A DNA stretch of 64,000 nucleotides from Coriobacteriia bacterium. Lineage in GTDB: Bacteria > Actinomycetota > Coriobacteriia > Coriobacteriales > UBA8131. A program made the position numbers and the translations under genes. The notes under the pieces were generated by a model, which was not told the DNA's origin, searched no databases, and saw only the letters and a list, made by a program, of their open reading frames with translations. Below, one piece after another: positions 10,502-64,000 of the stretch. Position 1 is the stretch's first letter. The number at the start of each line of letters is the position of its first letter. Where the stretch lies: positions 1,658-65,657 of the forward strand of contig WQXH01000006.1 in NCBI GenBank assembly GCA_009784945.1, read 5' to 3'.

Positions 10502-12304
10502 ATGGACGCTACTCAGGGTCAGGGCGAAGCCTTGCCACAAGACGGAAATCAAGTTTTGCCACATAACAAAAACCAATGCCTACCACCAAACAGCTACGCT
10601 GCCCCCGTAGGAGAGCCGGTGTTGCCGGCAGCTGATACGGCACCAAGCCCCCAGCGTAAAACTTGGCAGCGCAGGGATTTCATCCTTGCTTTGGCGCTTC
10701 TAGCGCTGGGCTTTTGCCAATGGGAGTGGAACCTGCACCTCTTAGGCACCAGTGGCGCAGGTGACACAGTCTTTTTTCTAGCCTGCATCATTATTGCCCT
10801 GATCTACCTGCAATCGCGAGACATTCAGCAGGATATAAAGAGTTCGCTGGCGCTCGGCGTGGCGGTTGCTGGCGCTCTTCCCTTCATCTTGTACGGCAGC
10901 CGCGATTTTAATATACTCCTGTGGTTTTTTGAGATATTTGCCTGTCTTGTGTGGATTGCCTATTCCTGTAGGTCTATCATTGCTCCAAGGCTTTCGCTCT
11001 TCTTGGCAGCCGACCTCTTTAACCAAAGCATCATTGTGCCCTGGGGCAATTGTGGTGGCTTTTTTGGGAGCCTCTTCAAGTGGCATACGAGCGTTAAGAG
11101 CAGCGCTCTCAAGACCGCGGCAATCATTGTGGCAGGCATTGCTGTTTCTCTGCCCCTGTTGCTGCTTGTTGGCTCGCTACTTGAGACATCCGACGATGGC
11201 TTTGCCCAGCTGTTGGTTAGTATTCGCGAAAGCCTGAGTGCAGTGGACATGAAGACCTTGCGAGGCTGGGGGCTCAATCTCTTGCTGGGCATTCCCTTTG
11301 CAGCCTTCTTTTTTGGCAGCATAGTTGGAAACGCCTCCCATAGGCATGTTGCACATCTTAAGTATGACAGTATGATGCGCACCTTTACCAAGGCGCACCG
11401 CCTCAGCTTGCTGGCCTTTTATGCTCCACTGGGCATCTTGGTGGCCATGTATTTGATTTACTTTATTGCCATGGGCACATATCTTACGAGCGCCTTGGCT
11501 GGTGAGCTGCCCAACAGCTTTACCTATGCGCAGTATGCGCGCCAAGGCTTCTTTGAACTCTGTACGGTTGCTGCCATCAATTTGATGGTCATGGGAGTCG
11601 TCTACTTACTGGCCAAGCGCCAACCTCGCACCTCTCCCCTGCCGCTCAGAGTGCTGACTGCCGCGCTCTCTTTGCTTACCATTGCACTGGTGATAACAGC
11701 TGCAAGCAAGATGCTTCTCTACATCAACACCTACGGACTGAGTCCTCTGCGCCTCTACACCTCTGTGTTCATGTTACTACTGCTCATCGTCTTTGCCCTG
11801 CTCTTTGCTTGGCATCTCAAGCCCTTTAATGCAGCACGCCCCTGTATAGCGGCTGCTGTTGCGCTCTTTCTTGCCCTCTCGCTTGCCAATACCGATGGTT
11901 TGATTGCTCGCTATAACGTTGATCAGTATCTCAAAGGAAGCACCGAGCACATTGACACCAAGATGCTGAGAAACCTGAGCCCAGCTACTCTACCAGCCTT
12001 AAGTGACCTTGCACTGCTAGCCGATGATGCTGAGGTCAAGAAGGACGCCTGGGAAGCCATAGACAGACTTGCAAGATACGATCGCAGCTCTTTGACTCCA
12101 GAAGGCCAAAGAGAGTGGGATTACTGGTATCATTGGAATCTTGTGGGCTACTTAGGCTGGCAAGCATTAGATGGCAGAGAGTTGCCTCCAAATGCGCCAG
12201 CCGAGCTTGGAGCAAAAGAGGAGTGGTTCGATGCGCATAGGAGTGGTGAGCGATACTCACGGGTATATGCCCCTGAAAGCAGTAGAGGCTCTGGAAGGCT
12301 GTGA
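10502..12304 (+). CDS. Polytopic integral membrane protein of unknown function (possibly DUF4153/DUF4173-like)
   Basis: 600 aa with a Pro/Gln-rich cytoplasmic N-terminus, at least 10 predicted TM helices, and a soluble C-terminal part. Confidence 0.7.
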   Translation: MDATQGQGEALPQDGNQVLPHNKNQCLPPNSYAAPVGEPVLPAADTAPSPQRKTWQRRDFILALALLALGFCQWEWNLHLLGTSGAGDTVFFLACIIIALIYLQSRDIQQDIKSSLALGVAVAGALPFILYGSRDFNILLWFFEIFACLVWIAYSCRSIIAPRLSLFLAADLFNQSIIVPWGNCGGFFGSLFKWHTSVKSSALKTAAIIVAGIAVSLPLLLLVGSLLETSDDGFAQLLVSIRESLSAVDMKTLRGWGLNLLLGIPFAAFFFGSIVGNASHRHVAHLKYDSMMRTFTKAHRLSLLAFYAPLGILVAMYLIYFIAMGTYLTSALAGELPNSFTYAQYARQGFFELCTVAAINLMVMGVVYLLAKRQPRTSPLPLRVLTAALSLLTIALVITAASKMLLYINTYGLSPLRLYTSVFMLLLLIVFALLFAWHLKPFNAARPCIAAAVALFLALSLANTDGLIARYNVDQYLKGSTEHIDTKMLRNLSPATLPALSDLALLADDAEVKKDAWEAIDRLARYDRSSLTPEGQREWDYWYHWNLVGYLGWQALDGRELPPNAPAELGAKEEWFDAHRSGERYSRVYAPESSRGSGRL

Positions 12305-12704
12305 CCACATTCTTCATGCAGGCGATGTAGGCACTCTCTCGATTCTTAACGAGCTCGAGACTATAGCCCCGGTTACCGCGGTGCAGGGCAATAACGACTA
12401 CCCGCTTGCTCATATGCTCAAACAACATGAACTGGTGGAGCTGGAAGGCGTACGTTTTTTAATAACACACCGCTTAGAAGACATGGAGTATCTCTTAAGC
12501 CACTGGCAGGCGCATAAGCCTTTGCCCCACGTGGGCATCTACGGTCACACGCATGTACCCAGAGATTTCATCTTTAAGCTCGGCGGCCTGCGCATGATGA
12601 ACCCAGGCTCCCTTTACGGCCCCCGTGGAGGGAGCACAAAATCCCTGCTCTTGCTCGAAGTAACAAGAGGCGCCCTTCTTGAAGCTACTGCGGTCAGTCT
12701 GTAG
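12231..12704 (+). CDS. YfcE/MJ0936-family metallophosphoesterase
   Basis: MRIGVVSDTHGY, HAGD, GNND, and GHTHVP motifs. AAAGAGGAG lies 8 nt upstream of the ATG at 12231. Overlaps the upstream gene by 74 nt. Confidence 0.85.
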   Translation: MRIGVVSDTHGYMPLKAVEALEGCDHILHAGDVGTLSILNELETIAPVTAVQGNNDYPLAHMLKQHELVELEGVRFLITHRLEDMEYLLSHWQAHKPLPHVGIYGHTHVPRDFIFKLGGLRMMNPGSLYGPRGGSTKSLLLLEVTRGALLEATAVSL

Positions 12705-12846
12705 CTCATAAGTTAGCCTTGGCTAATCTATTACAAATTGGGAGATAATCGAGATTTCCTATCAAAACACTAGGAATTGAAGTTCAGGAGTCGTATACTG
12801 CCACAATGATTTAATTCCTACTGGTTTGCTATGAATTGAGACTGAC

Positions 12847-14049
12847 GTGACCATAAAAACAATATATCTAGATAACGCAGCCACCACAGCTGTTGCTCCA
12901 GAAGTAATTCAGGAGATGCTACCCTACTTTGAAACGCTTTGGGGTAACCCTTCTTCTCTGTATGCCTTTGGGCAACAGACGCGCAGTGCTCTAGCAGATG
13001 CGCGCAATCGCATTGCCACCCACCTGGGCACAAGCGATCAAAACATCTACTTTACCGCCAGTGGCACAGAGGCTAACAACTGGGCCATCAAAGAAACGAT
13101 GTTTGCCTACCAAAACAAAGGCAGGCACTTTGTTACCACCGCAATTGAACACCACGCAACTTCGCACTCTGCTGCCTGGCTACAAAAGCGCGGCTATGAA
13201 GTCACCTTCTTAAAAGTAGACAAGGATGGCCTGGTAGATCCTGAAGAGTTTAGAGCTGCCCTGCGCCCAGACACCGTGCTTGCCTCCATCATTTACGGCA
13301 ACAATGAAATAGGAACGGTACAGCCTATCAAAGAACTGGCTGCCATTGCGCGCGAGAACAAGGTGCTCCTTCATACCGATGCGGTACAAGTGGTGGGGCA
13401 TATGCCTGTTGACGTGGAGGATTTGGGCGTTGATTTCTTGAGCGCTTCTGGCCACAAGTTCAATGCGCCTAAGGGAGTAGGCTTTCTCTATATCCGCAAG
13501 GGTATTAAGACCAAGGGCCTTCTTGATGGTGGCGCGCAAGAGCGCAAGCGGCGCGCTGGCACCGAAAATGTGCCTTATATCATGGGCATGGCCAAGGCTC
13601 TCGATCTGAGCGTGGCGAATATGCACGAGCGCACTGCCCACGAAATGAAACTGCGCGACCGCCTTATCAACCGACTTCTAAGCGAAGTTGAGCATTGCTA
13701 CCTCAATGGGCACCGCACTCAGCGCCTGGCAAGCAATGTGAATATCTCCTTTGAGTTTGTTGAAGGCGAGTCTTTACTACTCATGCTTGAGCAGCGGGGC
13801 ATCCTGGCATCCAGTGGCTCCGCCTGTGCCTCGGGTTCTCTTGACCCCAGCCATGTTCTTTTGGCTATTGGCCTGCCCCATGAAATTGCTCATGGCAGTT
13901 TGCGCCTGACGCTCAGCCATGAAACCAGCATAGAAGACATAGATTACACTGTTCGGGCCATCAAGGAGGTTGTAGCGCAGCTCAGGAGAATGAGCCCGCT
14001 ATATGAAGACTTCATGGCCGGAAGGAAGGCTCTCAGCGCCGTTAAGTAA
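12847..14049 (+). CDS. nifS: Cysteine desulfurase (NifS/IscS class)
   Basis: IYLDNAATT, the PLP-lysine motif SASGHKFNAPKGVG, and the active-site loop SSGSACASG. GTG start. Confidence 0.93.
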   Translation: MTIKTIYLDNAATTAVAPEVIQEMLPYFETLWGNPSSLYAFGQQTRSALADARNRIATHLGTSDQNIYFTASGTEANNWAIKETMFAYQNKGRHFVTTAIEHHATSHSAAWLQKRGYEVTFLKVDKDGLVDPEEFRAALRPDTVLASIIYGNNEIGTVQPIKELAAIARENKVLLHTDAVQVVGHMPVDVEDLGVDFLSASGHKFNAPKGVGFLYIRKGIKTKGLLDGGAQERKRRAGTENVPYIMGMAKALDLSVANMHERTAHEMKLRDRLINRLLSEVEHCYLNGHRTQRLASNVNISFEFVEGESLLLMLEQRGILASSGSACASGSLDPSHVLLAIGLPHEIAHGSLRLTLSHETSIEDIDYTVRAIKEVVAQLRRMSPLYEDFMAGRKALSAVK

Positions 14050-14219
14050 TATATTGGACAGTTTAAGCAGAGGATGGTTAATTTGAGCGAGTAGATTGGC
14101 ATGAAAGTCAGGTTCGTGACCGAGGGAGTTTATACCTGATAAATGACCGAGGTTCGGTTCTGACTTGAATGCCAAGGTGCCCCTCAAATTAAGCACTGGC
14201 AAGCAAAGGAAACCAGTCA

Positions 14220-14660
14220 ATGAGTTATTCAGAAAAAGTAATGGAGCACTTTTCAAACCCTCGCAATATGGGTGAGATAGAAAACCCCAGTGGAGTTGGC
14301 ACCGTTGGCAACGCCCAGTGTGGCGACATCATGCGTGTCTACCTTGACATAAACGATGGCATCGTCAATGACGTCAAATTTAAAACCTTTGGCTGCGCAG
14401 CAGCTGTAGCCACCTCCAGCATGGCTACCGAGCTGGTCAAGGGCAAAACGATTGAAGAAGCGCTCAAGGTTACCAACGCCGCCGTATGCGACGCCCTTGA
14501 TGGCCTGCCGCAGGTCAAGGTGCACTGCTCACTTTTGGCAGAAGAAGCTATTCATGCAGCACTTTGGGATTACGCGCAAAAGGAGGGCATCGCCATTGAA
14601 GGCCTGGAGCCACCCAAGAGCGACATTCATGAAGAAGAAGAGGAAGAAGAGGCTTACTGA
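14220..14660 (+). CDS. nifU: Fe-S cluster scaffold NifU/IscU
   Basis: HFSNPRNMG, GNAQCGDIM, FKTFGCAAA, and HCSLLA (three conserved Cys), followed by an EEEEEE tail. Confidence 0.93.
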   Translation: MSYSEKVMEHFSNPRNMGEIENPSGVGTVGNAQCGDIMRVYLDINDGIVNDVKFKTFGCAAAVATSSMATELVKGKTIEEALKVTNAAVCDALDGLPQVKVHCSLLAEEAIHAALWDYAQKEGIAIEGLEPPKSDIHEEEEEEEAY

Positions 14661-15073
14661 TGCGCGCAAGCAGCAAGGTTCGCTATGCCCTCTATTTGAT
14701 GATCGACGTAGCCAAGCACCAAGAAGCTGGCCCTGTTCCCCTCAGGGAGGTTTCGGTAAGGCAAAACATATCACTCAAATATCTCGAGCAAATTGCTTCT
14801 CAATTAAGCAAATTTGGCTATTTGGAGAGTATACGTGGTGCACAGGGTGGCTACCGCCTGGCTCGCGAGGCCGCCAGCATTAGCGCCGGAGATATCATGC
14901 GGGCTGCCGAAGGAGAGTTTGTTTCTGTTGCGTGCCTTGACGAAGAGGCAGAAGCCTGCCCACGCCAGTCACACTGCTGTAGCATCGCTGCCTTTTGGCA
15001 GGGGCTCCACCAGACCATTGATAGCTATACTGACGACGTTTCTTTAGAGAGCCTGGCGCTCACTCAGCTTTGA
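14660..15073 (+). CDS. Rrf2-family transcriptional regulator (IscR/CymR-like)
   Basis: MRASSKVRYALYLMIDVAKH...ISLKYLEQIASQLSKFGYLESIRGAQGGYRLA winged helix, plus C-terminal Cys residues. The ATG overlaps the nifU stop by 1 nt. Confidence 0.88.
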   Translation: MRASSKVRYALYLMIDVAKHQEAGPVPLREVSVRQNISLKYLEQIASQLSKFGYLESIRGAQGGYRLAREAASISAGDIMRAAEGEFVSVACLDEEAEACPRQSHCCSIAAFWQGLHQTIDSYTDDVSLESLALTQL

Positions 15074-35632: not shown

Positions 35633-35743
35633 TTACTGATCAGACCCAATTAGTCATTGCGGGCTTGACCCGCAATCTGAGACGCATTTTGGTTAGATTG
35701 CGGCTCGGAGGCCGCAATGACGGACTACAGTCTGACTAGTAAC
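35633..35743 (+). mobile_element. MITE-like element, copy A (111 bp)
   Basis: Terminal inverted repeats TTACTGATCAGAC / GTCTGACTAGTAA. Two internal 8-bp-stem hairpins (ATTGCGGG..CCCGCAAT; ATTGCGGC..GCCGCAAT). Flanked by the perfect 9-bp direct repeat TAGACAAGG (35624-35632 and 35744-35752). About 95% identical to the copies at 55320 and 61398. Confidence 0.7.
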
Positions 35744-55319: not shown

Positions 55320-55428
55320 GTTACTAGTCAGACTGTAGTCCGTCATTGCGGCCTCCGAGCCGCAATCTAACCATAATGCGTCTCAGATTGCGGGTCAAGC
55401 CCGCAATGGCATTGGGTCTGATCAGTAA
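55320..55428 (-). mobile_element. MITE-like element, copy B (reverse orientation)
   Basis: The reverse complement is about 95% identical to copy A. Flanked by CTCTGTTGG on both sides (55312-55320 and 55431-55439), with a 1-2 nt register ambiguity. Confidence 0.7.
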
Positions 55429-56144
55429 CCCTCTGTTGGGGCTCGATGTTGCTTGATAATTCAACCACTTGAGGTTGGTAGAAAACCATGCTACTATTAT
55501 TCTTGAATTGGCACTCGGTTGAACTTCGGATCATCGCGGGTGCCTCACTTTTTTTCTTATCGTCACCACTTCCAAGAATCAAAACTGGAACTGTAAGCTT
55601 TGGCCTTCTTGACATAAGCTCCATTTCTATATCATGATTACTCAGCTGCGAGTCGGTGTTATCGGTGTTATCAATTACCAGCAAATTGACACCTTCTTTC
55701 TTCTTTGTGTTACCAATAGCATTGCTCACAACTGATGCAGCACTGCACGCTTTTTGATGAAACCCATTTTAGCTCTTTACCAAACCCATCATCTGCAAGA
55801 CCAACAGTCTGCCAATAGCCCTTCTGTTTATCATAGTAGTGCCTGTAATCATATTGAAAATGGAAGGGATATCCTCTTTGTGTCAACCTCTGAGCAGTGA
55901 TGAGCTCGTGAGGACGCATCTTCATAATGATAGTCTTTAATTTTTCATCTGCAAAACTAACAGTGGGGGTTAATCCAGATAGAACCCAAAGGATATCTCT
56001 TCTTTTAAGCTCTTCTTCTACCTGGCTTAGCTCTGCCGCTGTCAAGCTTGCCCCAATTCTCATGCCGAGTACTTCTAATGCATCCTCGATAGCAGCTCTA
56101 ATAGCTAAAGGGGCAATTGTCAGCTTACTTGTATCCAAGTACAC
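55367..56144 (-). pseudogene. AT-rich hypothetical gene split by a +1 frameshift at an A5 run and C-terminally replaced by MITE sequence; possible PD-(D/E)xK-type nuclease fold
   Basis: ORFs 55710..56144 and 55367..55729 overlap by 20 nt in adjacent frames near TCAAAAAGC. The last 19 codons of the second ORF are MITE-derived. The motif spacing HE..(44 aa)..DD..(4 aa)..ELK is weakly suggestive only. Confidence 0.45.
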
Positions 56145-60757: not shown

Positions 60758-61042
60758 TCATGCTGTATCTGCTAAGTCCTTTTCAACAAGACTTCTCAAA
60801 TAATCCGACCTGCTCATGTTTAACGACTTAGCCCTGGCATCTATAGCTTGTATCCTTGATCTTGGCTCCTTAAAGGTTACTGGTTTAAGCTCCTCGCCAA
60901 AAAGCAGTGGGCGTCCAACGATAATCTCTTCAAAAGGAACGCCTGGGTACTCCCCACGCTCAGCAGCTTCAGACCACTCCTCGATTTGTTGAGCGGTTAC
61001 CCCATACTTCTTTTCGAGTTTCTTGGCGTCCATATTCATCAC
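60758..61042 (-). CDS. Ribbon-helix-helix (CopG/BrnA-like) antitoxin
   Basis: C-terminal RHH (RIQAIDARAKSLNMSRSDYLRSLVEKDL). Its start (GTG 61042, ATG 61039 or ATG 61033) overlaps or abuts the stop of the upstream small gene. Confidence 0.7.
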   Translation of the reverse strand: MMNMDAKKLEKKYGVTAQQIEEWSEAAERGEYPGVPFEEIIVGRPLLFGEELKPVTFKEPRSRIQAIDARAKSLNMSRSDYLRSLVEKDLADTA

Positions 61043-61299
61043 TTCCTTGCCATTCCCAGCTCTTTAAGTATCTTTTCAGTAGGCGGCACTTTTACATGGT
61101 AGATTAGCACGCCAAATGGCTTGTCAATTGCTATGAGCTCGATAAAATTGCCCTTTCTGTCAAAACCAATAGCCACCATCTGGTCAATGTTAGGCAATGC
61201 ACGTCGTTGCTTTCTGATGAAATTGCCCCATGCGTAAATCACATCTTCTTTGGTCAGTCCATGTTTTACAGCATTTGGATGCACTTCAATAGCAAACAA
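61039..61299 (-). CDS. Small toxin-like protein (tentatively BrnT/DUF497-like)
   Basis: 86 aa. The segment NAVKHGLTKEDVIYAW resembles the KHGVSFEE segment of BrnT-type toxins. Toxin-first order with an RHH antitoxin downstream. The family call is tentative. Confidence 0.55.
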   Translation of the reverse strand: MFAIEVHPNAVKHGLTKEDVIYAWGNFIRKQRRALPNIDQMVAIGFDRKGNFIELIAIDKPFGVLIYHVKVPPTEKILKELGMARK

Positions 61300-61311: not shown

Positions 61312-61347
61312 TCTATTACGTACTACAACATTGTACTACGTAATAGA
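61312..61347. promoter_or_regulatory. Palindromic operator candidate upstream of the TA pair
   Basis: TCTATTACGTA (61312-61322) and TACGTAATAGA (61337-61347) are perfect inverted repeats, with an internal direct repeat GTACTAC. Located 13 nt upstream of the toxin start. Confidence 0.4.
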
Positions 61348-61397: not shown

Positions 61398-61504
61398 TTA
61401 CTGATCAGACCAATTCGTCATTGCGGGCTTGACCCGCAATCTGAGACGCATTTTGCTTAGATTGCGGCTCGGAGGCCGCAATGACGGACTACAGTCTGAC
61501 TAGT
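61398..61504 (+). mobile_element. MITE-like element, copy C
   Basis: About 95% identical to copy A. Flanked by the direct repeat GAATTATG (61390-61397 and 61505-61512), with a 1-nt register ambiguity at the left end. Confidence 0.7.
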
Positions 61505-61714: not shown

Positions 61715-62323
61715 ATGGGTTTATTTGACAGAGTTTTTTCTCAGGAAAATCATAAGAATATAATTATTGTTAGCATCATATTGATTATTGCGGGCGCAGC
61801 AACTCTAGTAGTCAATGCAGTGACCTATGATAGATTAACCGAAGCAAGTCAAATGAAGAGTGATGTCACCTACTCAGTAAGTGCGACAAATGTCGAGCGG
61901 GTAGCAACCGAGATATCATCTGCTGAGCTCACCGGTCTTGTAATCCCGGAGTATGAATATGAAGGTGATTATGATTTGTATAGCTTTACGCTTGGCCAAG
62001 ACCACCTCTTGATTCTTTCAGCTGTAAGCACGGCGCAACCAACCAAGAACATACGCGGTCATGCTATTGCACTTGATAGAAATTCCTCGTCACTGCTTGA
62101 TAGCATGGTGTCTGCCCAGGAGCGCACGGACGGAACAACTTACGGAGCCTATGTTTTATGGCATGTGCCATCATCCTTTTTATACACTTATCTTGCTATA
62201 TGCGCCTTGATAATCGCAGGGCTGCTACTCCTGTGTTTGTTCGTGGCAAAAAGGAGCAACAATCAAAAAGACGTAATAAGGCTGCGCGGCATGGGCGGCG
62301 GCGGTTACAACGTGCGGAGATAA
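61715..62323 (+). CDS. Bitopic/2-TM membrane protein with an extracytoplasmic domain of about 130 aa; unknown function
   Basis: TM1 IIIVSIILIIAGAATLVVNAV and TM2 YLAICALIIAGLLLLCLFV, with a basic Gly-rich tail. Its stop lies 23 nt before the STAND gene start. Confidence 0.6.
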   Translation: MGLFDRVFSQENHKNIIIVSIILIIAGAATLVVNAVTYDRLTEASQMKSDVTYSVSATNVERVATEISSAELTGLVIPEYEYEGDYDLYSFTLGQDHLLILSAVSTAQPTKNIRGHAIALDRNSSSLLDSMVSAQERTDGTTYGAYVLWHVPSSFLYTYLAICALIIAGLLLLCLFVAKRSNNQKDVIRLRGMGGGGYNVRR

Positions 62324-62345
62324 TAGTCTTCAAAGGAGCAGGTCA

Positions 62346-64000
62346 ATGGACTGGAAGACTATCAAGATATTTATCAGCAGCACGTTTAATGACATGCATG
62401 CCGAGCGCGATTACCTCATTAAGTATGTGTTCCCCGAGCTGTCCGAATGGTGTGAGGAGCGTAGGATACGGCTCATTGACATTGATTTACGCTGGGGTGT
62501 GACTTCCGATGAATCGCAATCCAATAATGCCGTGCGAAAATGTCTTGAGAACATCGATGAATGTCGGCCGTTTTTCCTCTGCATGATAGGACAGAGACGA
62601 GGGTGGGTGCCTAACGACCCAGTGCGACTTGAGCATGATCGAAAAAAACGAGCACTGAGCGGCAGTGGCAACTGGCTTCAATATGAAATCAGCGATGAAA
62701 CAGCTGCTGAGTATCCGGAGCTCTTAAAAAGAAAGCGCATGCCAAGTGTGCAAGGGGTAGATGACTTAGATATGCCTGTACAGTACTGCTCTGTCACAGA
62801 AATGGAGATAGAGCATGCACTTCTTGAGCCAATGTACCGCATTTTGGACTGGGATGGTGAGCAGCAAGACAGGCAAAGCCCCCTGCCGTGCAATGCGTTG
62901 TTCTTGCAGCGACAGGACAGCTTTACCTCCCTGTTGTCTCCCGAACACCGTTTGATTTATACCAATGATGAGTTGCTTATATGGGGCGATGACCCCAAAA
63001 GAGCGGATAAAGCAGTTAATGAACTTGTGGAGACGGTCAAAAATGGTGGATATGAGCTGGTTTCCTATTCTGCTCGGTGGGATGAACACGTTCAGTCGCC
63101 CGAGCTTTCCGCAGAAACAAACGGTGGCATCATCAGCAAAGGGCGTTTGGTGCTGCCATGCGATTTTAAAGATATTCTTATCAGCAGGCTCCAGGCGCTC
63201 ATTTTAGGCACAGATGGTTTTCGAGACAGAGTAGAGCCTGTTGCACCACCTGTTGACCAATATGAAATCGATATGCAGCAGCAGGAGCAGTTTCTCAATG
63301 CTGTAACGGATAGTGTCGTCGGGCGAGAAGAGCTCATCAACGAGATGAATCAATACCTCGCAAATGATTCTCAACAAATAATGCTGCTCTCTGCACATGC
63401 AGGTTACGGAAAGACGACACTGTTGAAGAATGTTATCAAGCAAGCGAGCTCAAACCGGCTGCTCTACCGGTTTTGCGGGGTGTCGGATCTAACGACTGAC
63501 CCCTATGCGCTCTGGGATGCACTCTGCCATGAAGCTGGGGTGCACACACCTTCATCACTTGATGAACTGAGCAAAGAGTTGCCGAGGCTGCTGGCCGATA
63601 TTGCTCAGCTCGGTGTCAGCGCCATCGTGATTGATGCCGTAGACCAAATGCAAAATGGACTTGCTATGCTCAATTGGTTCAAGCGCCTGTTGCCTGACGG
63701 ATTGAAGTTGATAATAAGCATAAAAATGGATGATGCCAACAAACCGCTCATCGATAGCTTAAGTCAAGACACCGTAATCAATCATTGCACAGTAGGCTCT
63801 TTGAGTGAGCAAGCAGTTCAATTCAGTTTGATTGAGAACTTCCTGCTTCATTATATGAAGGCTTTGGACAATGAACAAAAGAAGGAGTTGTGTGCAAAAA
63901 ACAGTTCCGGCAACCCGCTGTACTTAAAAATTGTTCTCCATGAACTACGAAGGTTTGGGTCATTTAAGCAGCTGCCGCAAGAAATCGAAAGCTATGGGCG
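62346..64000 (+). CDS. DUF4062 (TIR-like) N-terminal domain fused to a STAND/NACHT-type P-loop NTPase; 3-prime end beyond the window
   Basis: Not in the supplied ORF track, because there is no stop in the window. AGGAG lies 7 nt before the ATG at 62346. I translated 551 codons by eye and found no stop. Motifs: KIFISSTFNDMHAERDYL, VFPEL..C, DLRWGV, CRPFFLCMIGQRRGWVP, SVTEMEIEHA, Walker A SAHAGYGKTTLL (nt 63402-63416), Walker B AIVIDAVDQ, and GNPLYLKIVLHELR. Confidence 0.8.
   Translation, partial: MDWKTIKIFISSTFNDMHAERDYLIKYVFPELSEWCEERRIRLIDIDLRWGVTSDESQSNNAVRKCLENIDECRPFFLCMIGQRRGWVPNDPVRLEHDRKKRALSGSGNWLQYEISDETAAEYPELLKRKRMPSVQGVDDLDMPVQYCSVTEMEIEHALLEPMYRILDWDGEQQDRQSPLPCNALFLQRQDSFTSLLSPEHRLIYTNDELLIWGDDPKRADKAVNELVETVKNGGYELVSYSARWDEHVQSPELSAETNGGIISKGRLVLPCDFKDILISRLQALILGTDGFRDRVEPVAPPVDQYEIDMQQQEQFLNAVTDSVVGREELINEMNQYLANDSQQIMLLSAHAGYGKTTLLKNVIKQASSNRLLYRFCGVSDLTTDPYALWDALCHEAGVHTPSSLDELSKELPRLLADIAQLGVSAIVIDAVDQMQNGLAMLNWFKRLLPDGLKLIISIKMDDANKPLIDSLSQDTVINHCTVGSLSEQAVQFSLIENFLLHYMKALDNEQKKELCAKNSSGNPLYLKIVLHELRRFGSFKQLPQEIESYG

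Follow-up and report, generated by a model that had tools for sequence, protein, structure and literature searches.

Near its right-hand end, a 64,000-nt stretch of a Coriobacteriia bacterium genome (assembly GCA_009784945.1, contig WQXH01000006.1; the whole stretch is hereafter termed the window) runs out within a long open reading frame. This raises the question of what kind of protein the frame encodes, whether the gene is intact, and whether it may serve in the defence against phages. An initial annotation had proposed a DUF4062 (TIR-like) effector coupled to a NACHT-type STAND NTPase and, hence, a candidate NLR-like antiphage gene; this core assignment is supported by profile hits, by homology to human TEP1 and by the full-length gene. 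As judged from its sequence, the ORF represents the 5′ portion of a gene for a bacterial NLR-like protein combining a NIR/DUF4062 domain, a STAND ATPase and a β-propeller sensor.

The reading frame and the integrity of the gene

Frame +3 is free of stop codons from the ATG at 62346 to the end of the window (551 codons in the translation of 62346–64000), the motifs quoted in the initial annotation are all found in this translation, and the AGGAG was likewise correctly located 7 nt before the ATG. The features of the gene within the window are as follows:

62334–62338, forward strand: Shine–Dalgarno-like AGGAG, 7 nt upstream of the start codon, read off the sequence
62346–64000, forward strand: NLR-like gene, first 551 codons of 1433 aa, based on the open frame, identical contigs and full-length orthologues
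62346–63215, forward strand: NIR/DUF4062 TIR-like domain, residues 1 to ~290, based on Pfam, TEP1 homology, AlphaFold and conservation
62616–62789, forward strand: variable insert, residues 91–148, between strand C (GWVP) and the catalytic helix, based on alignment and the AlphaFold model
63306–64000, forward strand: STAND NTPase module and start of the winged-helix/helical region, continuing past the window, based on Pfam and motifs

Over 12,286 bases, the window is identical to the ENA contig ERZ27264051:k141_3073908 (L001), in which the ORF (10632–14933) runs on to a stop at the window-equivalent position 66647 and encodes 1433 aa; an identical NLR gene is present in Logan SRR10512954 (L002). 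Full-length orthologues, which were reached only via the partner gene p338 described below, comprise 1409–1433 aa and share 43–64% identity. A decaying remnant or assembly artefact without function, as might be suspected from related metagenome contigs in which the gene appears split in two (L056, ORFs of 586 and 773 aa; the ENA contig L061, 343 and 1096 aa with the break at Walker A), is extremely improbable, being already contradicted by the single unbroken 1433-codon frame in two independent assemblies, the full-length orthologues, the retained functional motifs and the JGI copy of the L061 locus (L068), in which the gene is intact.

The NIR domain and its predicted catalytic residue

The Pfam model DUF4062 (PF13271) matches residues 7–91 with 47.5 bits, its cutoff being 24.7 (45.3 bits for the full-length protein); its last 12 positions are unaligned in the match because of an insert. 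The NIR domain of human TEP1, which has been crystallised (PDB 11gz), can be aligned with residues 2–91 at an E-value of 4e-19, the first 90 residues being ~42% identical, and upon removal of the insert the alignment extends through SVTEME (E 3e-20). Since the crystal construct covers TEP1 residues 895–1113 and the reported R908 falls on chain position 15, the TEP1 numbering is fixed, and E1008, at chain position 115, corresponds to the second Glu of TEME, that is, to E154 in SVTEMEIEHA.

In NIR domains studied so far, the catalytic Glu lies where helix C begins (TEP1 E1008, KpSwz E97, PsAvs2 E108). Its mutation abolishes the NADase activity of TEP1, and E-to-Q or E-to-A exchanges at the equivalent position lead to the loss of both defence and NAD+ depletion in KpSwz, PsAvs2, Vulcan and Vesta. 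E154 is, thus, the predicted catalytic residue, and the domain is predicted to hydrolyse NAD+. Across 85 relatives, S149 and T151 do not vary, at least 90% retain E154 and R84, and SVTE[MI]EIEHALL is kept in every full-length orthologue. The Glu of HAERD (E20), formerly proposed as the target for mutagenesis, is indeed invariant; the residue with demonstrated catalytic function is, however, a different one and maps to E154. The codons concerned are 62805–62807 (E154), 62595–62597 (R84) and 62403–62405 (E20); the motifs occupy residues 18–22 (HAERD), 86–89 (GWVP), 149–158 (SVTEMEIEHA) and 184–191 (ALFLQRQD). The position of TEP1 R908, a residue whose mutation lowers activity, is taken by Asn (N15) throughout the NLR clade.

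GWVP and SVTEME are separated by 59 residues here versus ~20 in TEP1, and orthologues have 21–58 residues aligned to residues 91–148. An extra insert is, therefore, present as had been noted, but its net size is variable, at ~15–40 aa, rather than ~45 aa. It is partly helical by prediction, with the pLDDT falling towards its end. The subsequent ~150 aa, previously taken for a linker, mostly belong to the NIR domain, the fold of which reaches approximately residue 290 in a confident AlphaFold model (pLDDT 87.9) with five parallel β-α units, the last helix at 274–288, and a β-hairpin before helix E, as described for TEP1. A Foldseek search of the PDB with this model gave no significant match, to TIR or any other fold (best E 9e-3, TM ~0.3), and the TEP1 entry was not returned; the TIR-likeness, hence, rests on the sequence homology to TEP1 together with published structures.

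The STAND NTPase and the propeller sensor

The NTPase module carries Walker A (AHAGYGKTT, residues 350–358, 63393–63419, with GYGKTT at 353–358), Walker B (IVIDAVDQ, residues 427–434, 63624–63647, with VIDAVDQ at 428–434) and SGNPLYL at residues 521–527. Every orthologue retains Walker B; the same holds for Walker A, with the split ENA copy L061 as the sole exception. NACHT (PF05729) scores 24.1–25.7 bits, just under its cutoff of 26.7, and the PADLOC hits to Avs proteins are confined to the P-loop. AAA_22 passes its Pfam cutoff, as does NPHP3_N (26.5–29.5 bits versus 24.8), and a weak APAF1_C match is seen in the full-length protein. Searching PDB sequences with a profile of the NTPase region returned weak hits only, the best being a plant NB-ARC NLR (E 0.008); by sequence, the NTPase appears too divergent to be placed as either NACHT or NB-ARC.

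The sensor, which had been placed beyond the window, is encoded there: in the full gene of L001, the C-terminus is a divergent WD40-like β-propeller region of ~640 residues. Matches to WD40 or β-propeller families occur at ~820–1103 in five of six orthologues, all of them under the family cutoffs, and the region matches WD40 proteins of the PDB at E-values of 1e-5 to 2e-9; hhalign self-comparison found no internal repeats, and a search with the region yielded one marginal hit. The propeller is, accordingly, barely recognisable by sequence. The domain order of the 1433-aa protein is NIR/DUF4062, divergent NACHT-like STAND NTPase, helical region and WD40-like β-propeller, so that the repeat sensor is contained in the same polypeptide as effector and NTPase. 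No DNA-binding or other output domain was found by profile search of the full-length protein.

Genomic setting and distribution

Upstream of the NLR gene, the window contains the following features:

60758–61042, reverse strand: putative antitoxin, 94 aa, with a C-terminal ribbon-helix-helix-like region (weak)
61039–61299, reverse strand: putative toxin of a TA-like pair, 86 aa, named from its position only; overlaps the start of the next gene
61312–61347, no strand: candidate operator in the form of a perfect-spaced palindrome with arms of 17 nt, lying shortly upstream of the toxin gene
61416–61486, no strand: nested hairpin repeat of ~70 nt, REP/MITE-like (inverted repeats I2 and I3)
61715–62323, forward strand: accessory 202-aa protein with two transmembrane segments (2-TM); 22 nt separate its end from the NLR start

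Synteny of the plsX-to-rplS block extends to related Coriobacteriia metagenome-assembled genomes, whose corresponding locus lacks the TA pair, 2-TM gene, NLR gene, p338 and downstream genes. The cassette, thus, occupies a variable region adjoining a housekeeping block that is conserved; the G+C content of this island is 43–49% compared with 51–55% for the housekeeping genes. The putative antitoxin matches an NCBIfam VapB-family model under its cutoff (E 4.8e-6), along with weak BrnA and repressor hits, and the putative toxin, a gene likewise missing from related genomes, has no profile hit. The hairpin repeat is found in three copies in the window (35652, 55382 on the reverse strand, and 61416; zero expected by chance).

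A defence-type neighbourhood is not apparent: the surroundings consist of TA-like modules and a transposase, and no recognised defence system was detected within the 20 kb read around the NLR gene in the source genome. PADLOC (2023) gave short P-loop matches only on the locus, and Rfam gave nothing in 11.8 kb around the cassette. In related loci, a second gene of NIR-STAND-TPR type lies beside the cassette. No copy was found on phage records and viral contigs, and plasmid records gave only two weak, distant DUF4062 hits; hence, no known mobile element carries the cassette. It recurs in contigs with names suggestive of termite-gut metagenomes. A genome-contig scan with the 551-aa fragment revealed no relative, and a word-indexed protein search, which also missed the query protein itself, none closer than 45% identity. 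The variable locus, the patchy distribution and the NIR-STAND-TPR neighbour in related loci provide circumstantial evidence for the antiphage role, for which the gene is a candidate.

The partner protein p338

The initial annotation had regarded the upstream 2-TM gene as the partner of the NLR gene. This protein, with hydrophobic segments near residues 13–31 and from 151–169 onward, has no family hit in PHROGs, PADLOC, Pfam or NCBIfam, and its homologue (34% identity, E 2e-29) occurs in a single other distinct locus (L061/L068), so that it was rejected as a core partner. The conserved partner is located downstream, just past the window, where p338 encodes a 338-aa tail-anchored, TPR-like protein and is followed by a strong terminator-like hairpin. 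Upstream DNA was readable in 12 distinct loci, and in each of them the p338 homologue starts at most ~40 nt from the NLR stop. This constant pairing of the NLR with a small membrane-anchored helical protein is new. That distant p338 relatives are always NLR-paired, too, was considered and rejected, one case (L066) being readable. The p338 homologues bear both Coriobacteriia and Oscillospiraceae names.

No family was assigned to p338 in PHROGs, PADLOC, Pfam or NCBIfam, nor to a further accessory protein of 176 aa in the same collections. In the partner model, which was built on the orthologue P0122 (65% identical to p338), a Foldseek search of the PDB and of viral structures matched generic TPR, 14-3-3 and SNAP-like solenoids only.

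Proposed mechanism and alternative readings

Homology and the 2026 literature suggest NADase activity, phage sensing and oligomerisation of the NLR, as well as a role for p338. The most probable reading is that of a single-chain NLR-like immune receptor in which sensing by the propeller would lead to STAND oligomerisation, NIR activation and abortive infection. The 2-TM gene, the NLR gene and the 338-aa tail-anchored gene would form a short operon. At rest, the receptor would be a monomer with the WD40-like propeller folded back onto the STAND NTPase. A phage protein, as the most likely trigger, would bind the propeller and release the NTPase, which may then bind ATP and oligomerise via its NACHT-like module; this would gather the N-terminal NIR domains and open their active sites, and the infected cell would stop growth before the phage cycle is completed. 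In this process, p338 probably associates with the receptor on the inner membrane face, serving as a tether or adaptor or else holding it in check.

On this background, NLR and p338 might constitute an obligate two-component membrane immune receptor, in which p338 restrains the NLR or presents a signal to it—for example, an inner-membrane event in phage entry or assembly. We regard this as possible, albeit tentative.

Unlikely is a two-step signalling system, in which the NIR domain converts NAD+ into a nucleotide signal, similar to the TIR protein of Thoeris, and p338 serves as a membrane-damaging effector, possibly together with the nearby small membrane proteins. Its appeal lies in the pairing of p338 and NLR without exception, in the fact that all accessory genes surrounding the cassette code for membrane proteins, and in the many invariant polar residues of p338, which evolves no faster than the NLR. 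However, p338, made up of one tail-anchor helix and a TPR-like solenoid, contains no domain recognisable as nucleotide-binding or pore-forming; moreover, ADP-ribose and nicotinamide were the sole products of the TEP1 NIR domain, cyclic or other derivatives being absent, and NAD+ is depleted by each of the four bacterial NIR systems that have been tested.

Rather improbable, too, is a STAND-type signalling or housekeeping regulator outside defence with the NIR domain as a catalytically silent interaction module. While such a silent NIR has been suspected for NWD1, NWD2 and NPHP3—human proteins that share this architecture and, unlike TEP1, showed no NADase activity in vitro when tested at full length—the catalytic Glu motif is kept across the clade. 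The location next to a housekeeping block with no recognised defence genes adjoining in the source genome is compatible with a regulator, as is N15 in place of the Arg equivalent to TEP1 R908; yet related genomes lack the gene at this locus and its occurrence across phyla is patchy, as is typical of defence genes. The lack of a DNA-binding or other output domain, the statistical enrichment of NIR genes near defence genes, and the phage protection conferred by all bacterial NIR systems tested also speak against this regulator.

Relation to known systems

Three 2026 preprints describe NIR as the NAD+-depleting effector of the antiphage systems Swarozyc, Evangelion, Vulcan, Vesta and the NLR-like Avs2, and they note its presence in other prokaryotic NLR-like proteins. 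The closing statement of the initial annotation, according to which the system is uncharacterised, does not hold in the light of these reports: the gene is of a kind described in 2026.

PsAvs2 (Le Mouellic et al., bioRxiv 2026, 10.64898/2026.09.04.749371) likewise combines a NIR domain (an NADase in PsAvs2), a STAND NTPase and a C-terminal repeat sensor in a single chain, and the proposed logic is common to both, leading from sensing via oligomerisation and NAD+ depletion to abortive infection. In contrast to the divergent WD40-like propeller found here, the sensor of Avs2 is TPR-like helical and recognises terminase, and Avs2 acts as a single gene, whereas the present NLR is always accompanied by its tail-anchored partner. 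An Avs2 orthologue was ruled out because the PADLOC/NCBIfam Avs2 and Avs4 models match only ~50–90 residues at the P-loop (E 0.001–0.04), far under their cutoffs. Swarozyc, Evangelion and Vulcan, single-gene systems from the 2026 preprints, share the NIR domain, which degrades NAD+ in those systems, with its conserved catalytic Glu; there, however, NIR is coupled directly to an auxiliary or HEAT sensor without a STAND NTPase, and Swarozyc is activated by assembly with the phage portal.

The bNACHT proteins (Kibby et al. 2023) are bacterial phage-protective receptors of the NACHT/STAND type, as is proposed for the NLR described here, and WD40 propeller sensors are documented in bacteria for Apaf-1-like STANDs (10.64898/2026.01.04.697583); both groups employ other effectors (nucleases, proteases and others). 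With eukaryotic NWD1, NWD2 and TEP1 (NIR-NACHT-helical-WD40), the domain order is shared. The present NLR differs from these in being bacterial, in lacking a TROVE domain, in its much more divergent propeller, in the additional variable insert before the catalytic helix, and in the Asn at the position of TEP1 R908.

Significance of the NLR clade

It was only in 2026 that NIR/DUF4062 was recognised as an NAD+-degrading immune effector common to bacteria and the human vault/telomerase protein TEP1, and the bacterial NIR systems tested so far are either fusions to helical sensors or the TPR-type Avs2. The clade described here has, up to now, been seen only in contigs that appear to be of termite-gut microbial origin. 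Should it represent a plain single-gene abortive-infection system, it would add one further member to a known class. If, instead, p338 is required, a membrane-linked regulatory step new for bacterial NLR-like proteins would be implied, and the two-component reading, if true, would mean that the NWD1/TEP1 architecture has a counterpart in bacteria that is regulated in a new way. The NLR clade has the domain order of animal NWD1, NWD2 and TEP1 and could become an experimentally accessible bacterial model of the way in which a NACHT protein with a propeller sensor switches on its NIR domain.

Gene integrity and sensor architecture

Translation confirms the reading frame of the NLR gene described in the initial annotation, which starts at the ATG at 62346, in frame +3, and is open for all 551 codons to the window edge. 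An AGGAG motif is located at 62334–62338, 7 nt 5′ of the ATG, the largest other ORF within 62346–64000 comprises at most 114 aa, and all quoted protein motifs are found in the order and spacing described. The full gene was reached by exact-sequence look-up of the upstream 202-aa protein (2-TM protein), which retrieved two contigs: L001, an ENA metagenome contig of 137 kb that is identical to the window over 12,286 overlapping bases, and L002, a Logan contig of 7 kb (SRR10512954). In L001, the ORF spans 1433 codons up to its stop, and the very same 1433-aa protein is encoded by L002; hence, the gene is intact and not a remnant. A word-indexed protein search missed this protein and its full-length orthologues (43–64% identity), despite called genes in the same collection; absence there is, thus, no sign of rarity.

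In the window part of the NLR, the claimed DUF4062 domain is recovered (Pfam, 47.5 bits vs a cutoff of 24.7), AAA_22 and NPHP3_N exceed their Pfam cutoffs, and NACHT scores about 1 bit under its cutoff. The full-length protein shows a weak helical APAF1_C match (residues 664–742) and WD40/β-propeller matches at about 820–1103, every one under its family-specific cutoff; the propeller matches recur in five of six orthologues, and the C-terminal part matches WD40 proteins of the PDB. Since these matches are weak, residues 1110–1433 showed no similarity to anything recognisable, and profile self-comparison of the propeller region revealed no repeats, the sensor is read from sequence as a very divergent propeller region. 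PADLOC (2023) recognised only the P-loop, and neither the Avs2 nor the Avs4 model matched the NLR.

DUF4062, renamed NIR, is established as a TIR-like NADase (three 2026 preprints), depleting NAD+ in the antiphage systems Swarozyc, Evangelion, Vulcan and Vesta and also in NLR-like Avs2 (2026 preprints), and WD40 sensors are on record for bacterial STANDs (10.64898/2026.01.04.697583). The earlier view of an NLR-like antiphage defence gene was, therefore, right in kind, but the type of system is no longer uncharacterised.

The NIR domain and its predicted catalytic residue

NLR residues 2–91 align with human TEP1 over its crystallised NIR domain (PDB 11gz; E 4e-19), and upon deletion of residues 92–135 the alignment extends through SVTEME (E 3e-20). 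An AlphaFold2 model of residues 1–320, built on 85 relatives (pLDDT 87.9, pTM 0.86), comprises the following elements.

Predicted elements in the AlphaFold2 model of NLR residues 1–320
4–12/18–37, strand-helix unit
41–47/62–73, strand-helix unit
76–81, listed with the strand-helix units
between 76–81 and the catalytic helix, inserted segment, partly helical
150–160, catalytic helix
183–189, strand, and 217–233, helix
238–250, β-hairpin
265–269, strand, and 274–288, helix
305–319, connecting helix

According to these elements, the NIR fold extends to about residue 290, and most of the stretch of about 150 aa that had been regarded as a linker makes up the domain's second half. The hairpin preceding helix E is described for TEP1, too. 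A Foldseek comparison of the N-domain model with the PDB yielded no significant match (best E 9e-3, TM about 0.3); the putative TIR-likeness of this domain rests on the published structures of TEP1 and the Swarozyc protein KpSwz.

Published catalytic glutamates are KpSwz E97, PsAvs2 E108, Vulcan E98, VstA (Vesta) E103, and TEP1 E1008. For the TEP1 construct (895–1113; PDB chain of 220 residues), the chain position equals the residue number minus 893; under this numbering, R908 and R976 fall on Arg (positions 15 and 83) and E1008 on position 115, the second Glu of T-E-M-E. NLR E154 aligns with E1008 and R84 with R976; none of the 85 relatives departs from S149 or T151, and at least 90% of them keep E154 and R84. 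The residue initially proposed for mutagenesis, E20 of HAERD, is invariant, yet differs from the Glu shown to be catalytic, which corresponds to E154. Given that the R908 position is Asn across the whole NLR clade (STFNDMH) and that full-length NWD1, NWD2 and NPHP3 are inactive in vitro, activity of the NLR is not to be presumed.

The partner protein p338

The gene of p338, a 338-aa tail-anchored TPR-like protein without a detectable family match, is located at L001 14951–15967, about 2.7 kb past the window end and 17 nt 3′ of the NLR stop. Loci were gathered via p338 homologues (n = 17, 44–65% identity; an NCBI Coriobacteriia MAG supplies an identical one, an Oscillospiraceae MAG another) and a metagenome scan. 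Twelve distinct loci have readable DNA upstream of the p338 homologue, and in each of them this homologue starts at most about 40 nt from the stop of a NIR-NACHT-propeller gene, and p338 orthologues (54–65% identity) follow the same rank order as their NLRs. Family members share the strongly conserved motifs MEDMY, GQLAISYDEY, HPANPDNYRFI and DDMET, and their C-terminus carries a hydrophobic anchor. A 65%-identical orthologue is modelled (pLDDT 87.1) as an all-α solenoid with a terminal transmembrane helix, resembling only generic TPR or 14-3-3-like repeats. The family is rare (71 clusters at E ≤ 0.001 among 1.84 billion representatives); one distant relative lacks an upstream NLR, so that the pairing is established for the closer clade only. 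One locus (L063/L073) carries two tandem p338 copies.

Putative operon and accessory genes

The proposed 2-TM partner has a homologue in just one other distinct locus (L061/L068; 34% identity) and, thus, is not a general companion. A different protein of 176–185 aa, which has a transmembrane helix at its N-terminus and matches no family, is found beside the NLR-p338 pair in seven loci, either 5′ of the NLR or 3′ of p338 (among L061/L068, L062/L071, L063/L073, L070, L069 and L077). The accessory genes around the cassette all code for small membrane proteins. In two loci, the cassette is flanked by RyR-domain proteins.

In this genome, gaps of 22 and 17 nt and a strong terminator-like hairpin 3′ of p338 (L001 16091–16114) suggest a three-gene operon of 2-TM gene, NLR and p338. 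That hairpin apart, L001 15968–17305 (about 1.3 kb after p338) contains no ORF above 81 aa and no Rfam match. About 5–6 kb past the window end, two overlapping ORFs of 59 and 201 aa occupy L001 17306–18080; the longer one weakly matches GNAT acetyltransferases (E 0.027), and the pair could constitute another TA-like module, with a GNAT-type toxin. Next come an Ldh_2 gene and a DDE transposase.

Genomic setting

Judged by RNase HII (68–74% identity), MAGs of Coriobacteriales/Coriobacteriia are the nearest genomes; one of them bears a name, Lab288P1bin85, that fits a termite-gut MAG study, and we infer a termite-gut habitat for the other contigs. The plsX-to-rplS block is syntenic in related Coriobacteriia MAGs, which lack at this place the TA-like pair, 2-TM gene, NLR, p338, two small genes, Ldh_2 gene and transposase; the NLR cassette is, thus, no part of conserved housekeeping synteny. 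The G+C content of this island is below that of its surroundings. No recognised defence system was found within the 20 kb covered around the NLR in this genome, and phage and viral records yielded no cassette copy; a second NIR-STAND-TPR gene adjoins the cassette in one related locus.

Further features of the window
55367–56144 (−) (L001 3653–4424), two small genes (120 and 142–144 aa) between dprA and trmFO
60758–61299 (−), overlapping 86-aa and 94-aa genes
61312–61347, palindrome with 17-nt arms, just 5′ of the 86-aa gene
35652–35681, 55382–55411 (−) and 61416–61486, three copies of a nested-hairpin element of about 70 nt (CGTCATTGCGGGCTTGACCCGCAATCTGAG...)

The genes between dprA and trmFO are without family matches and absent in otherwise syntenic relatives; they form another small insertion within the housekeeping block. 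The TA assignment of the 86-aa/94-aa pair, absent in relatives, is plausible, if unproven; the 94-aa protein gives weak VapB/BrnA-type antitoxin matches under cutoff, and the palindrome may serve as an operator. The nested-hairpin element is always intergenic (chance expectation in the 64-kb window, 0 matches); it resembles a REP-like or miniature dispersed repeat, and no evidence of recent mobility was seen.

Proposed mechanism and significance

The NLR is best supported as an NLR-like abortive-infection receptor. Its propeller would sense a phage-derived trigger, upon which the STAND NTPase would oligomerise and the clustered NIR domains would hydrolyse NAD+, with the tail-anchored p338 probably tethering or restraining the receptor at the membrane. 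The analysis demonstrates the domain architecture, the conservation of motifs, an intact gene, its pairing with p338 and the variability of the locus; NADase activity, the trigger, oligomerisation and the part played by p338 are inferred. The interest of this system derives mainly from its obligatory p338 partner and from a domain order like that of NWD1/TEP1 in a bacterium.
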